Shown piece after piece: positions 5,342-63,100 of a stretch of 64,000 bases of DNA; the stretch's first letter is position 1, and the number at the start of each line of letters is the position of its first letter. Location: positions 16,242-80,241 of the forward strand of contig JBAUWJ010000190.1 in NCBI GenBank assembly GCA_049583715.1. Direction: 5' to 3'. A model generated the notes under the pieces. The model saw only the letters and a program-made list of their open reading frames with translations. It was not told where the DNA came from and made no database searches. Source of the stretch: Arenicellales bacterium (GTDB lineage Bacteria > Pseudomonadota > Gammaproteobacteria > Arenicellales > JAANXG01). The position numbers and the translations under genes were made by a program.

Positions 5342-5345
5342 TTAC

Positions 5346-5660
5346 AACCCGACGCTCCCCGCATCCGTCTGGGTCGGTCGGACCTCGTTCCCGATGATCT
5401 CCGACACTCCCCACATCCCTGTGGGTCGGAATTCATTCCGACAAGCATCGTTTGACGGTGCTTGTGCGGCTAAGGCTTACCGAGCTTATGCGGGAGTACC
5501 CCGCATGAACCGGGAAGGGTCTTTGTCGAGCGTCTCGAGGCAGGAGCCGAGAGCGAGCCTACATGGATGTACTTGCGGCGTATCGACAAAGACCCTTCCC
5601 GGTTCATGCCCGAACGCTGCTTCCTTCGTTTGGGATCGGAGGAAACAGCGCAGAGGATCC
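5346..5660. repeat. Composite intergenic repeat cluster, copy A (REP hairpin family B plus 26-bp-arm hairpin family C)
   Basis: The family B hairpin GTCGGAATTCATTCCGAC lies at 5425-5442. The family C arms are CATGAACCGGGAAGGGTCTTTGTCGA (5504-5529) and its complement (5583-5608), around a 53-nt loop. The flanks match the reverse complement of 18490..18790. The cluster sits between the convergent genes phr and nadA. Confidence 0.85.
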
Positions 5661-5850
5661 TGTCTGGGGGGCCGATCTTCTTGCCACGGGCTCGAGGGGG
5701 AACGGTGGTTCCTTGATAGTCCCGAGGCACCTCCCCCAGCCCATGCGCTCCGTGGTCCTTTCAGCTACGCCGCGTACACCCCCTCTCTGGGAAACACCAA
5801 CCTCGAAGGCCCCGGATCAGCGAGCGAGACCTACTTCAACCAGATACAAC

Positions 5851-9616: not shown

Positions 9617-9997
9617 CTAGAACGGCAGGGGAATCCTCATCCCGGCTTTTTTCTTAGTGTTTTTTTTTGAGCCTCGCTTTTTGGACGTCTTCTTCTTGGA
9701 CGTCTTCTTCTTGGAGGTCTTTTTCTTGCGGCTCACCTTTTTCGCCGCCTTTTTCCTGGCCTTCTTCCTGGCCTTCTTCTTGGCCTTTTTCCTGGCCTTC
9801 TTTTTGGCCTTTTTCTTGCCCTTCTTCCGGGCTTTCTTCTTACTGGCCTTCTTTTTAGCCTTCTTTTTGGCCTTTTTCTTGGCCTTCTTCTTCGTGGCCT
9901 TCTTCTTGGTCTTCTTGGCTACCTTACGAGCCGACTTTTTTCGGGTCGACTTCTTCTTCGTAGCCTTCTTCTTGGCTCGTTTCTTAGCTGCTGCCAT
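9617..9997 (-). CDS. Lys/Ala-rich histone H1-like (AlgP/Hc1/BpH1-like) basic protein
   Basis: 126 aa, with 66 Lys by my count, built from (A/T/S)KKK and KKKTS repeats. A strong SD (GAGGAGA) lies 7 nt before the ATG. A near-consensus promoter lies upstream and an intrinsic terminator downstream, both on the minus strand. The opposite-strand Phe-rich ORF 9657..10016 has no such signals. Confidence 0.75.
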   Translation of the reverse strand: MAAAKKRAKKKATKKKSTRKKSARKVAKKTKKKATKKKAKKKAKKKAKKKASKKKARKKGKKKAKKKARKKAKKKARKKARKKAAKKVSRKKKTSKKKTSKKKTSKKRGSKKNTKKKAGMRIPLPF

Positions 9998-10281
9998 GAC
10001 GCGTCTCCTCGTGTGAGGTTTGGTTGAGTTGAGTTGATTTAATCCACTCGCCGGCCGACGCCTGTGAACAGAGTCGTGGTTCGGGAGTCGATCGTGAGTG
10101 GGGCTGAAAGAGTAGAGGGTATGAGTCTCCGGTTTCCTGCGTAGAGCAGTAACCGTGTCCGCCGGCGTCTATGAAGTGCTTCGCCAATGTATCGGCTTTT
10201 GTCGCCTGCTGTCTTTGTAGAACGTCCTTGATACCCGTGTCGATTCAATCTTAAACGCAATCCGTATTGGATTTGTCGCAG

Positions 10282-12580: not shown

Positions 12581-14758
12581 TCAGCGCGGCACCGTATCGG
12601 TGTCCGTTGCTTCGTCGTCGGCCTTGCTCTGGGTGATTCCCTCACCCCGGTTCTCTCCCTGGGTGACCCCCTGGCTCATCCCCTGCGTCATGAGCTGGCG
12701 GTGCCGCAGCCGGATGAGGTCGACGAGAATGTTGGCCGCTTCCCGCTGCTTGATGCGGCGGGCGTCGGAGATATACGTGGGATCGGCACTGCTCTCCTGC
12801 TCGCTCAGCTCGTCCAGGCTCGACAAAGGCTTTTCGCCGATCGTCCTGCGATAGATGTTCAGCCGGTTGAGCTGCTGGTTGTCGATCTCATCCATAGTCC
12901 TCTTGCGCACTGAGCGCTCGAGGCTGAATTCCTTCTGCTCTTCCAGCTTGCTCGCTGCCACGGCCTCGCTGCGAAGGTAGGCGAAGCCGGGGTCGTGGCG
13001 TACCCGCCGCCGGTGCAGCTCCCTCAGCGCGGAAATGTCGAGAGGACCGAGTCCGGACACCTTGTACTCGGCAGGCTTGATGGACTCCCAGGGCAGGGCG
13101 TTGTCGAATGCCCTCTCTCCCTGTTTGTCGCTGTCAATCGACGTCGGGTACATGATGTCCGGGGTGACGCCGCGCAACTGCGTGCTGTCTCCATCGACCC
13201 GGAAGAACTTGGCTATGGTGTATTTCAGCTTGCCCAGCTCCGGGCCGTCGCCGAGGTTCTCCACCCTCTGGACGGTACCCTTACCGTACGTGGGGTCGCC
13301 GATGATGAGACCGCGCCCGTAGTCCTGGATCGCCCCCGCGAAGATCTCGGAGGCCGACGCACTGTACTTGTCCACCAGTACCGCCAGCGGACCCGAATAG
13401 ACGATCTTCGGATCGGGATCGCGGCTGACGCTGACGCGGCCGAGGGAATCGCGCACCTGCACGACGGGCCCCTGCGTGATGAACAGACCCGTCAGCTCGA
13501 TGGCCTCGGGGAGCGAGCCGCCGCTGTCGCCGAGCAGGTCCACCACCACGCCGTCGATCCGTTCCTTACTCAACTCGTGCAGAATGTTACGCACGTCCCG
13601 GGTCGTGCTCCGGAAGTTCTTGTCGCCGCGGGCCCGGGCCTCCAGATTCGAGTAGAAGGTCGGGACCCGGATCACGGCGATGCGGCGCACACCCCCGGGT
13701 GTGGGGATCTCGTAGATCCTCTTGTGAGCCGCCCGCCCTTCCAGCTTCACTTTGTCCCGAACCAGGCGGATCTCGTGGGTCGGGCCGCCGAGCGGCTCGT
13801 TCTCCCGCAGGACATCCAGCCTCACGACGCTCCCCTTCGGGCCCCGGATCAGATCCACGACGTCAGCCAGACGCCAGCCGTTGACATCGACCATGTCCCC
13901 ATCGCCCTGGGCGACGCCGGTGATGCGGTCTCCCGCGAAGACCTTGTGGCTCAGCGCGGCCGGCGCACCGGGGATGACGCGCTTTATGACCGTCTCGCCG
14001 TCCTCCGACTGCAGCGCCGCCCCGATGCCCTCCAGGCTGAGGCTCATGCTGATACTGAAGTTGTCCGAGGCGCGCCGCGCCAGATAGCTGGTATGCGGCT
14101 CGATGGAGCCGGCGTAGGCGTTGATGAAGGTCTGGAATACATCCTCCCGATCGAGCTGGCGGATACGCCGGTCGATGCCTTCGTAGCGCTCACGCAGCTT
14201 CTTGACGATCTCGGCGTCCTTCTTGCCGGACAAGGACAGTATCAACCAGTCATTCTTGACCCGCTTGCGCCAGATCTCGTCCAGCTCGGCCCGGTTCTTC
14301 GCCCAGGGTGCATCGCTGCGGTCCAGCCTCACCGTCTCGTCGATCGAGAAATCGAAACCCTTGTCGAGCAGCGACAGGGCATACCGGACCCGCTCGCCGA
14401 CGCGCTCGCGCACCCTCTTGAAGATCTCGTAGGCCGGGGAGAGATCGGCCTTGTCTATGGCATCGTCCAGCTTGTCCCTGTACTTGGAGAACTCCGCAAC
14501 GTCGGACGCGAGCAGATAGCTGCGGTTCCCGTCCAGGGCCTTGAGGTACCGGTCGAAGATCTGTTCAGACAGCTTGTCGTCGAGCCGCACGTTCCGGTAA
14601 TGGAAGCGGTCGATGAAGTAGTGGATGAGCTTCGTGGCCCGCTGCTGGTCGGCGGTGGGATGCAGGTCCGCCAGATCGACGACCGTGGGACTTGCGAGCA
14701 CGCAAGGGGCGCTCGCGATCATCAAGAGGATGAGTACCTGTCTGATAAGTTTCGTCAT
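12581..14758 (-). CDS. prc: Tail-specific (C-terminal processing) protease Prc, S41 family
   Basis: 725 aa with a signal peptide. The N-terminal helical domain is HYFIDRFHYRNVRLDDKLSEQIFDRYLKALD. A PDZ domain follows. The S41 core is LAVLVDKYSASASEIFAGAIQDYGRGLIIG...GTVQ...KYTIAKFFR. Confidence 0.93.
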   Translation of the reverse strand: MTKLIRQVLILLMIASAPCVLASPTVVDLADLHPTADQQRATKLIHYFIDRFHYRNVRLDDKLSEQIFDRYLKALDGNRSYLLASDVAEFSKYRDKLDDAIDKADLSPAYEIFKRVRERVGERVRYALSLLDKGFDFSIDETVRLDRSDAPWAKNRAELDEIWRKRVKNDWLILSLSGKKDAEIVKKLRERYEGIDRRIRQLDREDVFQTFINAYAGSIEPHTSYLARRASDNFSISMSLSLEGIGAALQSEDGETVIKRVIPGAPAALSHKVFAGDRITGVAQGDGDMVDVNGWRLADVVDLIRGPKGSVVRLDVLRENEPLGGPTHEIRLVRDKVKLEGRAAHKRIYEIPTPGGVRRIAVIRVPTFYSNLEARARGDKNFRSTTRDVRNILHELSKERIDGVVVDLLGDSGGSLPEAIELTGLFITQGPVVQVRDSLGRVSVSRDPDPKIVYSGPLAVLVDKYSASASEIFAGAIQDYGRGLIIGDPTYGKGTVQRVENLGDGPELGKLKYTIAKFFRVDGDSTQLRGVTPDIMYPTSIDSDKQGERAFDNALPWESIKPAEYKVSGLGPLDISALRELHRRRVRHDPGFAYLRSEAVAASKLEEQKEFSLERSVRKRTMDEIDNQQLNRLNIYRRTIGEKPLSSLDELSEQESSADPTYISDARRIKQREAANILVDLIRLRHRQLMTQGMSQGVTQGENRGEGITQSKADDEATDTDTVPR

Positions 14759-18175: not shown

Positions 18176-18489
18176 CCCGCATCGCACAAACTCGCGACGT
18201 ATCCGGAGGATCATCGGGGACGCAATTCGTGGACGGCGTAGTCGACAGCGGTATGTAGAGCATGGGGTGGTTCGGGTCCTTGTCGACAGGCATCCGGTAC
18301 CTTGGACGCTGTGCTTGTCCTCTCTGGTCGAATAACCCAAGCGACCGCGCCGCTCACCCCTCATCCTGTGCTTCTCGACTGGCGTTCCCGACTTCGTCCT
18401 GCCTCCTCCATCCCTGGAGTCGTCCCTCGATGGAAGAAGAAACCTATGGCCCCGTGTTGGGGGTACGTGAGAGAAATCGGGGTCCGTGC

Positions 18490-18790
18490 TCCAGATCCTC
18501 CACCTCAAACAAAAGGAGCAGCGTGGGGGCATGAACCGGGGAGGATCTTTGTCGAGCGTCTCGAGGCAGGAGCCGAGAGCGAGCCTGCTTCGGAGGTAAT
18601 TGCGGCGTGTCGACAAAGACCCTCCCGGGTTCCTGCGGGGCGCTCCTCTACAAGCTCGGCAGGCCCCAGCAGCGCAGCACGATCAAACACTGCTTGTCGG
18701 AATGAATTCCGACCCACAAGGAAGTGGGGAGTGCCGGAGACCGTCGGGAATGAGAACCGACCGACACACTTCGGATGTGGGGATGGAGTG
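18490..18790. repeat. Composite intergenic repeat cluster, copy B (family C hairpin plus family B REP)
   Basis: The family C arms lie at 18530-18555 and 18610-18635 around a 54-nt loop. The family B hairpin GTCGGAATGAATTCCGAC lies at 18696-18713. The flanks are the reverse complement of copy A, but the loop is in the same orientation. An extra 25-nt module, CCTCCTCCATCCCTGGAGTCGTCCC, at 18402-18426 recurs exactly at 32199-32223. Confidence 0.85.
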
Positions 18791-20401: not shown

Positions 20402-21709
20402 GTGGCTAACACTGAATTCGTTGATGATTTTCTGGCTTTTCTGAGGGCTTCTCCGACACCGTTCCACGCCGTCGCCAACATCGCCGGCCGCCTCGAGCGG
20501 AGCGGGTTTGTCCGTCTGCGCGAGCACGAGGACTGGCGACTCGACAAAGACGGACGCTATTACGTCGTGCGCAACGGCTCATCCATCGTCGCCTTCTCCA
20601 ACACCGGGGAGCCCGGCATCCAGGGCATACGCATGGTCGGGACGCACACCGACAGCCCGTGCCTCAAGATCAAGCCGCGGCCGGAGCGCGTCAAGAACGG
20701 CTACTTCCAACTCTCCGCGGAGGTCTACGGGGGGGCGCTGTTGAACCCGTGGTTCGACCGCGATTTGTCCATCGCCGGCCGGGTCACCCTGCAGACCGGC
20801 GACCGGTCGCTGGTCCACCGGCTGATCGACTTCGAGCGACCCCTGGGCGTGATCCCGAGTCTCGCCATCCATCTCGACCGGGAAGCCAACAACAGCCGCT
20901 CCATCAACGCACAGACGGATATCCTCCCGCTCCTGCTGCGGACAAGCGAAGAAGGGCTCGAGTTGCGCAGCCTGTTGGCGGACCGGCTGGCGAAGGAGCA
21001 TCCGGACTATGCATCGGCCGAAATCCTGGATTTCGAGCTATGCCTGTACGATACGCAGCCGCCCGCGGTGGTCGGAGTCAGGGATGAATTCATCAGTGGC
21101 GCGCGGCTGGACAACCTCGCGAGCTGCTTCATCGCCGTGCGCGCCATCGTCGACCACGAGCACACCCGGCCCGTGCTGATGGTCTGCAACGACCACGAAG
21201 AGGTCGGCAGCCAGTCGGCCGTGGGCGCCGACGGCCCGTTCCTGCGCGACGTGATCCATCGCTGGCTGGGGGATCGCAGCGCCATGGCGGGCGCCATGGA
21301 CAGCTCCCTGCTGGTGTCGGCCGACAACGCCCACGGGGTGCACCCCAACTACCCGGACAAGCACGACGAGAATCACGGCCCTGTCCTGAATGGCGGACCG
21401 GTAATCAAGGTCAACCAGAGCCAGCGCTACGCCACCAACAGCGAGACCGGCAGCATCTTTCGGGCGATTTGCCTCTCCGCCGAGGTGCCGGTACAGAGCT
21501 TCGTCTCCCGGGCCGACATGGCCTGCGGCACGACCATCGGGCCGATCACGGCGGGTGGCGTGGGCGTCAAGACAGTCGACGTCGGAATTCCACAGCTCGC
21601 GATGCATTCCATTCGCGAGACCTGCGGGGCCGCGGACCCCGAATACCTGTACCGGGCGCTGAAGGCCTTTTTCGATACGGAGCAGCTTCAGGCGGCAGAA
21701 GCTTTCTAG
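20402..21709 (+). CDS. apeB: M18 family (aspartyl) aminopeptidase
   Basis: 435 aa with a GTG start. Segments FLRASPTPFHAV, GTHTDSPCLKIKP, RLDNLASCF, DHEEVGSQS and HSIRE are typical of M18 aminopeptidases. Confidence 0.9.
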   Translation: MANTEFVDDFLAFLRASPTPFHAVANIAGRLERSGFVRLREHEDWRLDKDGRYYVVRNGSSIVAFSNTGEPGIQGIRMVGTHTDSPCLKIKPRPERVKNGYFQLSAEVYGGALLNPWFDRDLSIAGRVTLQTGDRSLVHRLIDFERPLGVIPSLAIHLDREANNSRSINAQTDILPLLLRTSEEGLELRSLLADRLAKEHPDYASAEILDFELCLYDTQPPAVVGVRDEFISGARLDNLASCFIAVRAIVDHEHTRPVLMVCNDHEEVGSQSAVGADGPFLRDVIHRWLGDRSAMAGAMDSSLLVSADNAHGVHPNYPDKHDENHGPVLNGGPVIKVNQSQRYATNSETGSIFRAICLSAEVPVQSFVSRADMACGTTIGPITAGGVGVKTVDVGIPQLAMHSIRETCGAADPEYLYRALKAFFDTEQLQAAEAF

Positions 21710-21836
21710 GGAAGCTCTGATTAATGCCGTCATTGCGAGGAGCGACGCGACGAAGCAATCCAGAAAGCGTGCAATGGCAGGCATCCTGGATTGCTTCGCT
21801 GCGCTCGCAATGACAACGTGTTAATCAGAGCTTCCC
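21709..21836 (+). repeat. Dispersed palindromic element family A (MITE-like), copy 2
   Basis: The element runs GGGAAGCTCTGATTAATGCCGTCATTGCGAGGAGCGACGCGACGAAGCAATCC...GGATTGCTTCGCTGCGCTCGCAATGAC...TTAATCAGAGCTTCCC. Its first G is the last base of the aminopeptidase TAG stop (21707-21709). Confidence 0.85.
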
Positions 21837-21957
21837 TGGCTTGATCGTCGGTGCGACCGCACAGTTTCTCCCTCGCAGGACCGCTCCCCAAGAGAGAGGT
21901 ATCGCAAGAACGCTTGCGCTCGCTCCGGCAGCCGGCACTCGCCGATTCGCACCCGCC

Positions 21958-32022: not shown

Positions 32023-32149
32023 GGACTCGGTGTCGATGAACTGGCCGCTATTATAGACCCCGCCGTCGCCACTGAGCTAAGGATGGTCCAAGAGCTCCCT
32101 CTTCCTTCGGGAGCTTCGGGAAAGCCGGGACAAGGGGGCGCTGTCCGGG

Positions 32150-32390
32150 AACCACCCTCACCCTGACCCTCTCGGCTCTGGCTCCGTGCTTCGCCCTACC
32201 TCCTCCATCCCTGGAGTCGTCCCGCCAGCGGGAGAGGGAATGGAGCCTTGTCGACAGATTGCCAGGTCCGGACAAAGACGTCGCCGGAAGCCCTCTCCGC
32301 CGCTCCCTCTCCCTCCGGGAGAGGGCTGGAGTAAGGGGGCGCTGTCGGGGAAACGCCCTGACTCTGACCCTCCGGCGGGAGAGGGCATCC
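32150..32390. repeat. Cluster of family D hairpin repeats (CCCTCTCCC-N4-GGGAGAGGG type)
   Basis: Several copies or half-copies are present, for example CCCTCTCCCTCCGGGAGAGGGCTGGAGTAAGGGGGCG and CTGACCCTCCGGCGGGAGAGGGC. The same family occurs at 49603-49629 and 62869-62996. Confidence 0.8.
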
Positions 32391-47954: not shown

Positions 47955-48150
47955 ATTGGTGTCACCTGCGGTGCTCGCGCCGGCCCGAAATCCCTTAGAA
48001 CCTAAATCACTTGAAGGGAGCCGGAATCGAGTATGTTGTTGCGCAAGTCCGCAAACGAGCGGAAAGCCTGATACATCTCGCAAGGCGCCCACTTGAACCG
48101 ACTCGGTTCAAGGCCAACGGCCGGTTTCGGCACAGGCGGGTGACACCTAC
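47955..48150 (+). ncRNA. ssrS: 6S RNA
   Basis: It sits in the conserved slot between zapA and the 5-formyl-THF cyclo-ligase gene. The 5' GGUGUCACC (47958-47966) pairs with the 3' GGUGACACC (48139-47), and CCGAAA pairs with UUUCGG, forming a closing stem. The conserved 6S 3'-side hairpin CUUGAACCgacucGGUUCAAGG lies at 48092-48113. The ends are approximate. Confidence 0.85.
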
Positions 48151-50722: not shown

Positions 50723-50752
50723 CCAACCGGTTCCCGGGGCGGCCTTCACAAT

Positions 50753-51073
50753 GTCGGAATGAATTCCGACCCACAGGGGCGCCGCGGTGTCGCCGTCGTT
50801 CGTTCCGACAAACCGCAGCATGGAAATGAATCGCAACCCTCGCGATCCGGCGGTCTGACCGCTCAAGCGTGGGTCGGAATTCATTCCGACAATTCTCGAT
50901 ATCGGAATGAGCTCCGACCCACAGGGGTGCCGCGGTGTCGCCGTCGTTCGTTCCGACAAGCCGCAGCATGGAAATGAATCGCAACCCTCGCGACCCGGCA
51001 GTCTGACCGCCCAAATGTGGGTCGGAATTCATTCCGACAATTCTCGATATCGGAATGAACTTCGACCCACGGG
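50753..51073. repeat. 148-bp tandem repeat (about 2.2 units), each unit bounded by inverted family B REP hairpins
   Basis: REP hairpins of one orientation lie at 50753, 50901 and 51049. Those of the other orientation lie at 50873 and 51021. The period is exactly 148 bp, and the units are near-identical, including the roughly 100-bp stretch between the hairpins. Confidence 0.9.
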
Positions 51074-62786: not shown

Positions 62787-62868
62787 GAGCGGGGGCTCCC
62801 ATTCAATGCCCCGGCCGAATGTCCCGCGTCTCCCGGTGTGGGGTCAGGAACACGGTGCTTTCATGTAC

Positions 62869-62996
62869 CGCCCCCTCACCCCAGCCCTCTCCCGGAGGGA
62901 GAGGGAGTAATGTCCCCTCTCCCGCTGGCGGGTTAGGGTGAGGGTGGTTCCACGCAACGCCCCCTCACCCCGGCCCTCTCCCGGCGGGAGAGGGGG
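62869..62996. repeat. Three family D hairpin repeats in alternating orientation
   Basis: The three copies are CGCCCCCTCACCCCAGCCCTCTCCCGGAGGGAGAGGGAG, then the inverted CCCCTCTCCCGCTGGCGGGTTAGGGTGAGGGTGG, then CGCCCCCTCACCCCGGCCCTCTCCCGGCGGGAGAGGGGG. Confidence 0.85.
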
Positions 62997-63100
62997 TTAT
63001 CCTTCCATCCCTGGCGACATTCTCTTTGGCGGCATCACCGCCAACCCCCAGGTCATACCCATCCTCTGCCGACCAATCCAGCGCAGCCTCCCTGATACCA

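Follow-up and report, generated by a model that had tools for sequence, protein, structure and literature searches.

Copies A (5346-5660) and B (18490-18790) of an intergenic repeat lie about 13 kb apart in the 64,000-nucleotide stretch of Arenicellales contig JBAUWJ010000190.1 analysed here (hereafter, the window). In one of them, A, the loop of a long hairpin is inverted relative to its flanks, and the inversion is confined to the hairpin arms. Judged by their sequence, A and B belong to one dispersed mosaic repeat and face opposite ways in the genome; the host is an uncultured Arenicellales (marine-type) gammaproteobacterium. We consider the flip likely to be a rare, one-off mutational inversion between perfect inverted arms and not a programmed switch. 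The inverted loop, which we term the core, is the conserved and structured part of the repeat and the arms are its variable part, a point overlooked by the first-pass annotation of the window that drew attention to the two copies.

That annotation had claimed that the loop is flipped relative to the flanks between A and B, and every element it described was found again by reading and by alignment. The flanks of the two copies are mutually reverse-complementary, and the arms together with the 53/54-nt loop are found on the same strand. Specifically, positions 5503-5560 of A, which cover one arm and the first 31 nt of the core, match 18529-18586 of B in direct orientation with 97% identity over 58 nt. 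The surrounding segments align as reverse complements only: 5370-5462 with 18676-18768 (86% over 93 nt), 5463-5529 with 18610-18676 (78% over 67 nt), and 5583-5632 with 18506-18555 (86% over 50 nt). By chance, at most 0.01 matches would be expected for a 20-mer of the loop and 0.00 for the arm. The changed segment is a reverse complement bounded by the arms, which flank it directly. In A, the arms (GCATGAACCGGGAAGGGTCTTTGTCGA) are complementary at 27/27 positions (100%) and enclose 53 nt; in B, 24/27 positions (89%) are complementary and the enclosed spacer is 54 nt. The arms are thus inverted as first described, with a length of 27 nt instead of the 26 given then. The P3 region of the core, one of two small hairpins described below, differs between the copies, and the core of A is, on this sequence comparison, not copied from B. 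The repeat itself also reaches beyond the limits initially assigned to it: A includes a decayed second unit at about 5683-5746, and the modules of B extend to about 18358.

The NadA protein encoded in the window is 100% identical to one from a metagenome-assembled Arenicellales bacterium. To place the two copies within a family, we collected the syntenic loci of relatives at 82-87% NadA identity and searched a degenerate loop pattern against metagenome contigs, which yielded 18 further loci (L022-L039). All sequence collected holds 34 cores, identified with a hidden Markov model and later with a covariance model, and the window holds only A and B. A 20-mer of the loop gave 13 matches in a genome-contig collection, in unrelated taxa and all chance matches inside genes, and the motif had no match in viral contigs or plasmids. 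A long-hairpin unit consists of a 5' flank, a 27-28-bp stem capped by the conserved core of about 53 nt, and a 3' flank. Two such units, hp1 and hp2, are embedded in the mosaic, which begins with a repetitive extragenic palindrome (REP) hairpin (GTCGGAATNNATTCCGAC; one copy each in A and B and four further ones, six in total in the window). This hairpin is followed by the 3' flank (..GGCACTCCCGC.., reverse strand), hp1, the 5' flank (CCTATACGCCCATCCCTTCGTTTGG, reverse strand), a spacer of about 60 nt, hp2 facing the opposite way, and the modules CCCTCACCC..CCCTCTCCC..GGGAGAGGG and CCTCCTCCATCCCTGGAGTCGTCCC. In the multi-locus alignment, the hp1-hp2 doublet is also present in L014, L015, L023, L026, L029, L031, L034, and L039. 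Most of these contigs are without nadA or phr, the genes that border copy A (tblastn found neither on L023, L026, L029, L031, L034, or L039), which shows that the doublet is dispersed over different loci instead of marking one orthologous site. Decay has affected the two window copies, A at hp2 and B by a cut just past the start of the hp2 left arm. The units favor spacers between convergent genes; beyond this preference, we found no consistent rule for their orientation with respect to neighboring genes.

Core orientation was then compared across the family. Each core was scored for the consensus of the 5' and 3' flanks, on its two sides and in the two strands (99th percentile of the null, 11), and we called a unit canonical when the 5' flank lay upstream and/or the 3' flank downstream of the core + strand. 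Ten hp1 and seven hp2 units showed the canonical order 5' flank-arm-core(+)-arm-3' flank, with scores of 11-26, and B is canonical by a weak flank score of 9 plus direct alignment. In A, both flanks are reversed, with scores of 12 and 9. Setting loop against flank orientation in the copies with recognizable flanks, a check that the first-pass annotation had proposed, thus shows 17 units and B to be fixed and only A to be reversed, a pattern that the annotation itself had listed against its reading. Similarly, orientation is the same within L023/L026 and within L028/L033, each a pair of probable orthologs drawn from separate samples.

Copy A lies between convergent nadA and photolyase (phr) genes, and the same spacer in L014 and L015 (NadA 83-86% identical) contains an hp1 unit within a mosaic of the same overall orientation as in the window. 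The hp1 core of both loci is opposite to that of the window (canonical flanks were scored in L014 only), and A is therefore regarded as the derived state. One further locus bears on the frequency of such events. L038 (1093-1171) is a hybrid that combines, in this order, a reversed 3' flank of hp1 (score 17), the left arm of hp1, a + core, the right arm of hp2, and the 3' flank of hp2 (score 25). Such an arrangement would arise most simply if hp1 flipped, which turned two cores into direct repeats, and a deletion between these cores followed. A second flip is thereby implied, although the contig is short and may be a chimera.

As for the molecular mechanism, we infer that replication template switching between the arms would invert the segment between them, with intramolecular recombination within the arms as an alternative route. 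Template switching at inverted repeats is known to homogenize the arms and to invert the spacer, recurrently and reversibly, with a preference for long perfect arms (PMC8604942). Inversions of hairpin loops in RNA genes, bacterial ones included, have been ascribed to inter-strand template switching, and the same process accounts for long stems remaining perfect (PMC8794818). In plastid DNA, small inversions associated with hairpins, 4-50 bp in length, are pervasive (PMC12371153). The repeat family fits this picture: its stems are near-perfect, with 27-28 bp and 0-3 mismatches family-wide although hp1, hp2, and the other subfamilies differ at many stem positions, and the arms of A are perfect.

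Several points weigh against a rare mutational inversion. With two flip-type events (A and the precursor of L038) among approximately 12 hp1 units, the inversion is rather frequent for a mutation taken to be rare, and the closest relatives, L040 and L041 (NadA 86-87%), are without hairpin units at the nadA-phr spacer, as are L042 and L043. The arms are palindromic, which renders the breakpoints invisible, and template switching, reciprocal arm recombination, and antiparallel ectopic gene conversion are indistinguishable because their product is identical. The population may also be mixed at A, or the perfect 27-nt inverted repeat there misassembled. Recombination between hp1 and hp2 was considered as a source of the flip and rejected, as it would part the 5' flank (F2) from the hairpin, yet the two are adjacent in A.

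The alternative named in the first-pass annotation, a modular reassembly of repeat units, fits the mosaic surroundings of the hairpin in part. Across the multi-locus alignment and the nadA-phr spacers, one locus differs from another by modules gained or lost and, at times, inverted. The length of the nadA-phr spacer ranges from 57 nt in L017, where it is empty, through 173 nt in L040 and 301 nt in L041, which contain REP and tail modules without hairpin units, to 509-626 nt in the window, L014, and L015, where hairpin units are present. By this comparison of sequences, the spacer is a hot spot for the gain and loss of repeat modules. Applied to the flip, reassembly would mean that the hairpin moves as an independent module, which entered one and the same flank junction twice, facing opposite ways, or that A was overwritten by ectopic gene conversion, in one variant from a donor aligned antiparallel through the palindromic arms. 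The CCTCC..GGAGTCGTCCC module adjoining B is indeed inverted with respect to L026, and the 97% likeness of A and B over the arms and the first 31 nt of the core, against 78-86% in the flanks, fits a recent homogenization among hairpins. However, independent insertion must strike identical junctions in a family whose orientation is otherwise strictly fixed (17 units and B), neither A nor B shows a target-site duplication where its arms end, and the 47 open reading frames scanned in the window include no transposase. Antiparallel conversion, for its part, is mechanistically close to template switching, and sequence cannot separate the two. For a flip bounded exactly by the arms, reassembly is the less economical explanation, and we regard it as unlikely.

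Still less probable, in our view, is an assembly artefact, in which a de Bruijn-graph assembler crossed the loop the wrong way between the perfect 27-nt arms and the true copy A is canonical. The source is a metagenome-assembled genome, A is the only window copy with perfectly complementary arms (27/27), and an assembler working with k-mers no longer than 27 finds no unique path through a hairpin of this kind. However, common metagenome assemblers end at k well above 27, and reads of 150 nt span the 107-nt hairpin. Other units with perfect arms (L015 hp2, L023 hp1, L025, and L029 hp1) are canonical, the contig is long (82.6 kb), and the P3 of the A core differs from that of B, so that A is not a cross-assembly of the two copies.

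The first-pass annotation had called the flip inverton-like. The inversion of an arm-bounded core stands; a programmed, reversible switch does not. Such a switch, in which a recombinase or dedicated system elsewhere in the genome flips the core and so changes the strand that carries a functional motif, would accommodate the inverted repeats that flank the segment exactly, the opposite orientation of the orthologous locus in L014/L015, the second flip implied by L038, and the strand specificity of the core, through which orientation would matter functionally. It is nevertheless highly improbable: orientation is fixed in the 17 other units and B and agrees within the pairs L023/L026 and L028/L033; none of the 47 window open reading frames (ORFs) scanned with Pfam has the domain of a recombinase, integrase, invertase, transposase, or REP-associated tyrosine transposase (RAYT), the neighbors being housekeeping genes; no sigma-70-like promoter was found within the segment or next to it in any of A, B, L014, and L034; the arm sequences are wholly different between family members, which leaves no common recombinase site; and 53 bp is, to our knowledge, far below known invertible segments and below what protein-mediated two-site synapsis readily allows.

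Conservation in the family resides in the core. Across loci, the stems are unrelated in sequence yet complementary, as illustrated by GCATGAACCGGGG.. in hp1, GCATGGGTTGGGGGAGG.. in hp2, and GGCCGAGGCGCGGC.. in L022, L028, L033, and L036, with others in L024, L027, L030, and L037. The predicted structure is made up of P1, which is the long stem, and of the small hairpins P2 and P3. In P2, CG-CU pairs with AG-CG around GGC(A)-loop-(U)GCC; in P3, AG..UAC pairs with GUA..YU. Overall, 95.6% of cells are paired and 14 of the 24 pairs have changed on both sides. None of 500 shuffles reached the observed values, and slid controls gave 30-50% pairing. Within the core, compensatory changes include GC to CG at pair (18,44) in L015 hp1 and both L037 copies, GC to AU at pair (26,37) in the hp1 units of L029 and L039, and AU to CG at pair (51,61) in L027; at pair (21,42), UG, UA, CG, and AU all occur. 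An extension of P1 into the core (CGTC at its 5' end with GRCG at its 3' end) was tried and rejected, since three sequences break pair (18,70) and the same three compensate at (18,44), from GC to CG.

The mismatches of the fold are not symmetric between strands. Read on the core + strand, P1 shows 13 unique G·U against 4 A·C events (p = 0.049), and pairs (21,42) and (47,63) are often U·G or G·U. As wobble pairs favor one strand, the constraint acts on the single-stranded core + strand. For the repeat, no Rfam family reached gathering or E-value thresholds, and around A there were only sub-threshold matches to generic hairpins (miRNA precursors). The core is a conserved, previously undescribed folded motif, in a family from uncultured sediment and soil Gammaproteobacteria. 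One subfamily adjoins a DUF6600 gene whose nearest named relatives (about 50% identity) are from Steroidobacteraceae, and the motif may extend beyond Arenicellales. We also considered that the arms were copied from the target at insertion, and rejected this origin: arms resemble one another from unit to unit (GCATGrryyGGGG...), as members of a family would, and hp2 of the window still has a left arm, though a decayed one.

The small hairpins of the core resemble binding sites of the post-transcriptional regulator CsrA. The consensus obtained for CsrA by systematic evolution of ligands by exponential enrichment (SELEX) is RUACARGGAUGU, with invariant ACA and GGA and with the latter placed in a hairpin loop (PMC4347634), and the CsrA dimer can bridge sites 10-63 nt apart (PMC3856055). 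P3 reads GUACAAGGAUGU in several units, matching this consensus. Among 31 distinct cores, 29 match at 10-12 of the 12 positions in P3, four of them exactly, and the opposite strand matches at 9 or fewer. P2 matches at 7-11 of 12 positions in most cores and at 5-6 in six, A and B included. In all sequence collected, 19 of 457,110 12-mers score at least 11, and most of these apparently stem from the elements themselves. The P2 loop reads CA-N-GGAUG in most units, the GGA motifs fall in predicted loops, and those of P2 and P3 are approximately 24-25 nt apart, inside the range bridged by the dimer. In the hp1 units at L029 2915-2967 and L039 331-383, P2 has changed from GGCA/UGCC to GACA/UGUC or GACA/CGUC, nearer the CsrA consensus, and AGACAGGGAUGU there matches it at 11 of 12 positions.

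From these matches, it is conceivable, if doubtful, that the core acts as a + strand RNA whose two GGA hairpins bind a CsrA/RsmA dimer. The flip would then move the binding-competent strand to the other of two convergent transcripts. A broader and even more tentative proposal is that the unit represents a new class of dispersed, strand-specific regulatory RNA module: a repeat-borne pair of high-affinity CsrA/RsmA-binding hairpins on a long, self-correcting stem. Opposed pairs of such units between convergent genes would yield one competent copy upon read-through from either side, and could serve as a distributed CsrA sponge or place neighboring transcripts under Csr control, with core flipping re-assigning copies. 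If the resemblance is functional, intergenic repeats would carry sites for a global post-transcriptional regulator, and the dynamics of "selfish" repeats, arm-mediated flipping included, would be linked to Csr/Rsm control.

These proposals face several objections. A strand-specific role of single-stranded DNA, for instance as a transposase substrate, explains the covariation equally well, and the resemblance to CsrA sites was recognized after the fact. Neither a promoter nor a terminator of their own was found at the hairpin units in the mosaics of A, B, L014, and L034: intrinsic terminators were absent from the window copies and L034, and the two weak terminator-like sites in L014 are not at hairpin units. 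The units could be transcribed only by read-through. In addition, L027_413 and L030 are without GGA in P2, B has lost the P3 consensus, and csrA was not found in the window or the fetched loci.

Table 1 Positions of the parts of copies A and B and of the nadA-phr spacers
Feature	Locus	Position	Strand	Remarks
Copy A, REP-containing module	window	5346-5462	+	REP hairpin GTCGGAATTCATTCCGAC at 5425-5442; a like module adjoins hp1 in L023, L026, L029, L034
Copy A, 3' flank of hp1	window	5463-5502	-	+ strand ..GCGGGAGTACCCC, reverse complement of canonical ..GGCACTCCCGC..; upstream, reversed, score 9
Copy A, left arm of stem P1 (27 nt)	window	5503-5529	.	27/27 complementary to 5583-5609
Copy A, conserved 53-nt core, flipped relative to flanks	window	5530-5582	+	covariance model R1, 84.1 bits, + strand
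P2 hairpin in A core	window	5539-5548		GGC-AGGA-GCC
P3 hairpin in A core	window	5560-5571		TACA-TGGA-TGTA; CsrA consensus 10/12
Copy A, right arm of P1	window	5583-5609	.	
Copy A, 5' flank of hp1	window	5610-5645	-	+ strand CCGAACGCTGCTTCCTTCGTTTGG, reverse complement of canonical CCAAACGAAGGGATGGGCGT; downstream, reversed, score 12 (null 99th percentile 11)
Copy A, decayed unit hp2	window	5683-5775	+	aligned with hp2 of L014, L023, L026, L029, L031, L034, L039
Copy A hp2, left-arm-like remnant	window	5683-5700		GCCACGGGCTCGAGGGGG
Copy A hp2, core start (~12 nt)	window	5719-5730		GTCCCGAGGCAC
Copy A hp2, 3' part	window	to 5746 (right arm)		~54-nt deletion, right-arm remnant ..CTCCCCCAGCCCATGC, then 3' flank GCTCCGTGGTCC
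Copy B, distal mosaic end	window	18358-18453	-	CCTCCTCCATCCCTGGAGTCGTCCC module at 18358-18426, inverted relative to L026 orientation
Copy B, hp2 left arm, first ~13 nt	window	18441-18453		AACCTATGGCCCC; unit truncated after this
Copy B, 5' flank of hp1	window	18490-18528	+	CAAACAAAAGGAGCAGCGTGGGG; canonical, upstream of core + strand; forward, score 9
Copy B, hairpin unit	window	18529-18636	+	arms 18529-18555 and 18610-18636; core 18556-18609, canonical relative to flanks; covariance model 65.5 bits
Copy B, P3 hairpin	window			partly degraded; CsrA consensus only 5/12
Copy B, 3' flank and REP module	window	18637-18790	-	REP hairpin at 18696-18713
nadA-phr spacer	window	5342-5850		
nadA-phr spacer	L017	11096-11152		
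nadA-phr spacer	L040	3643-3815		
nadA-phr spacer	L041	4163-4463		
nadA-phr spacer	L014	11096-11662		
nadA-phr spacer	L015	11096-11721		

Further pieces of the mosaic are scattered over the window and the related loci. The short modules CCCTCACCC..CCCTCTCCCGGAGGGAGAGGG and CCTCCTCCATCCCTGGAGTCGTCCC occur at 62829-63000, 32132-32385, 12639-12666, 18358-18426, and 32155-32223; in related loci they also make up the mosaic's tail, and they face either way with respect to the hairpin units. At 50745-51070, REP hairpins (GTCGGAATNNATTCCGAC) in alternating orientation make up an array resembling a bacterial interspersed mosaic element (BIME), with a 148-nt unit tandemly repeated at 92% identity. On the short metagenome contig L027 (1-1243), which comes from another organism, four diverged hairpin units lie within 1.2 kb, in alternating orientation and each with a stem of its own.

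The window contains other features of note. A full-length 6S (SsrS) RNA at 47960-48146 on the + strand (68 bits, against a gathering threshold of 46.4) is the only Rfam family found in it; the RNA partly overlaps the start of the stop-to-stop ORF for 5-formyltetrahydrofolate cyclo-ligase, the classic ssrS-ygfA arrangement. The ORF at 9617-10168 on the - strand consists largely of 12- and 15-nt tandem repeats, and its Lys/Ala-rich, low-complexity (KKAKK-type) product, without a Pfam match, may be a basic protein of the histone-H1/AlgP kind. An unrelated repeat family of about 115-140 nt is represented at 1612-1751 and 21705-21837, in opposite orientation and with 95% identity. It forms a nested palindrome resembling a miniature inverted-repeat transposable element (MITE), with outer arms CTGGGGAAGCCCTGATTAAT / ATTAATCAGAGCTTCCC and an inner hairpin CGCAGCGAAGCAATCCAG..CTGGATTGCTTCG, and is inverted as a whole, with no internal flip.

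Each of several known systems shares part of this architecture. Invertons such as fimS, hin, and the Bacteroides promoter invertons also have inverted repeats around a segment found in both orientations relative to its surroundings; here, by contrast, there is no recombinase nearby and no promoter cargo, the segment is only 53 bp long, the arms are unconserved, and orientation is fixed in nearly all copies. REP/BIME mosaics and REPINs are likewise multi-copy extragenic palindromes, mostly between convergent genes, in mosaics of variable composition and orientation, and a genuine REP-like hairpin, with its six window copies including the 148-nt tandem pair, is part of the present mosaic. In REPINs and BIMEs, however, the arms (REPs) are conserved and the linker is variable, whereas in our family the stems differ wholly and the apical core is conserved with covariation; a REPIN would show a conserved REP stem and a less conserved spacer, and no RAYT was found in the 64-kb window. 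The unit also differs from a MITE in that its arms are unconserved family-wide and no direct repeat flanks them in A (..ACCCC/GCATG...CATGC/CCGAA.., with slashes at the arm ends) or B.

With the Csr/Rsm sponge RNAs (CsrB, CsrC, and RsmX/Y/Z) and the SELEX ligands, the core has in common GGA in the loops of short hairpins, a P3 that equals the consensus, and a spacing of about 24 nt. The sponge RNAs are single-copy genes with a promoter and a terminator, whereas the units are dispersed repeats with two predicted sites each on a 27-bp stem, and they have no sequence or covariance-model similarity to the Csr/Rsm families of Rfam.

The terminal hairpins of parvoviruses such as adeno-associated virus (AAV) occur in flip and flop forms, which arise from copying through the hairpin in every replication round, by hairpin transfer at the end of a linear genome. 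There too, the interior of a hairpin is found in two orientations relative to its outer stem and flanks; our element differs in being chromosomal, internal, and almost always in one orientation.

The flip itself resembles template-switch inversions, examples being quasipalindrome mutagenesis, the spacer flips of inverted repeats in yeast, loop inversions in the hairpins of rRNA and miRNA, and the small hairpin-associated inversions of plastids, in which a segment bounded by the arms is replaced by its reverse complement, with its length kept and the arms perfect, in events that are rare, recurrent, evolutionarily reversible, and in need of no dedicated enzyme (PMC8604942, PMC8794818, PMC12371153). 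The reported cases mostly involve spacers of 2-8 nt, or 4-50 bp in plastids, compared with a 53-nt spacer between 27-bp arms here, and the present inversion lies in a multi-copy bacterial intergenic repeat in which the inverted piece is itself a conserved structured motif. The flip in A would thus represent a clean and unusually large bacterial case of a known process, spacer inversion between perfect inverted repeats, and it cautions that what looks "inverton-like" in a repeat family can be the trace of a single event.

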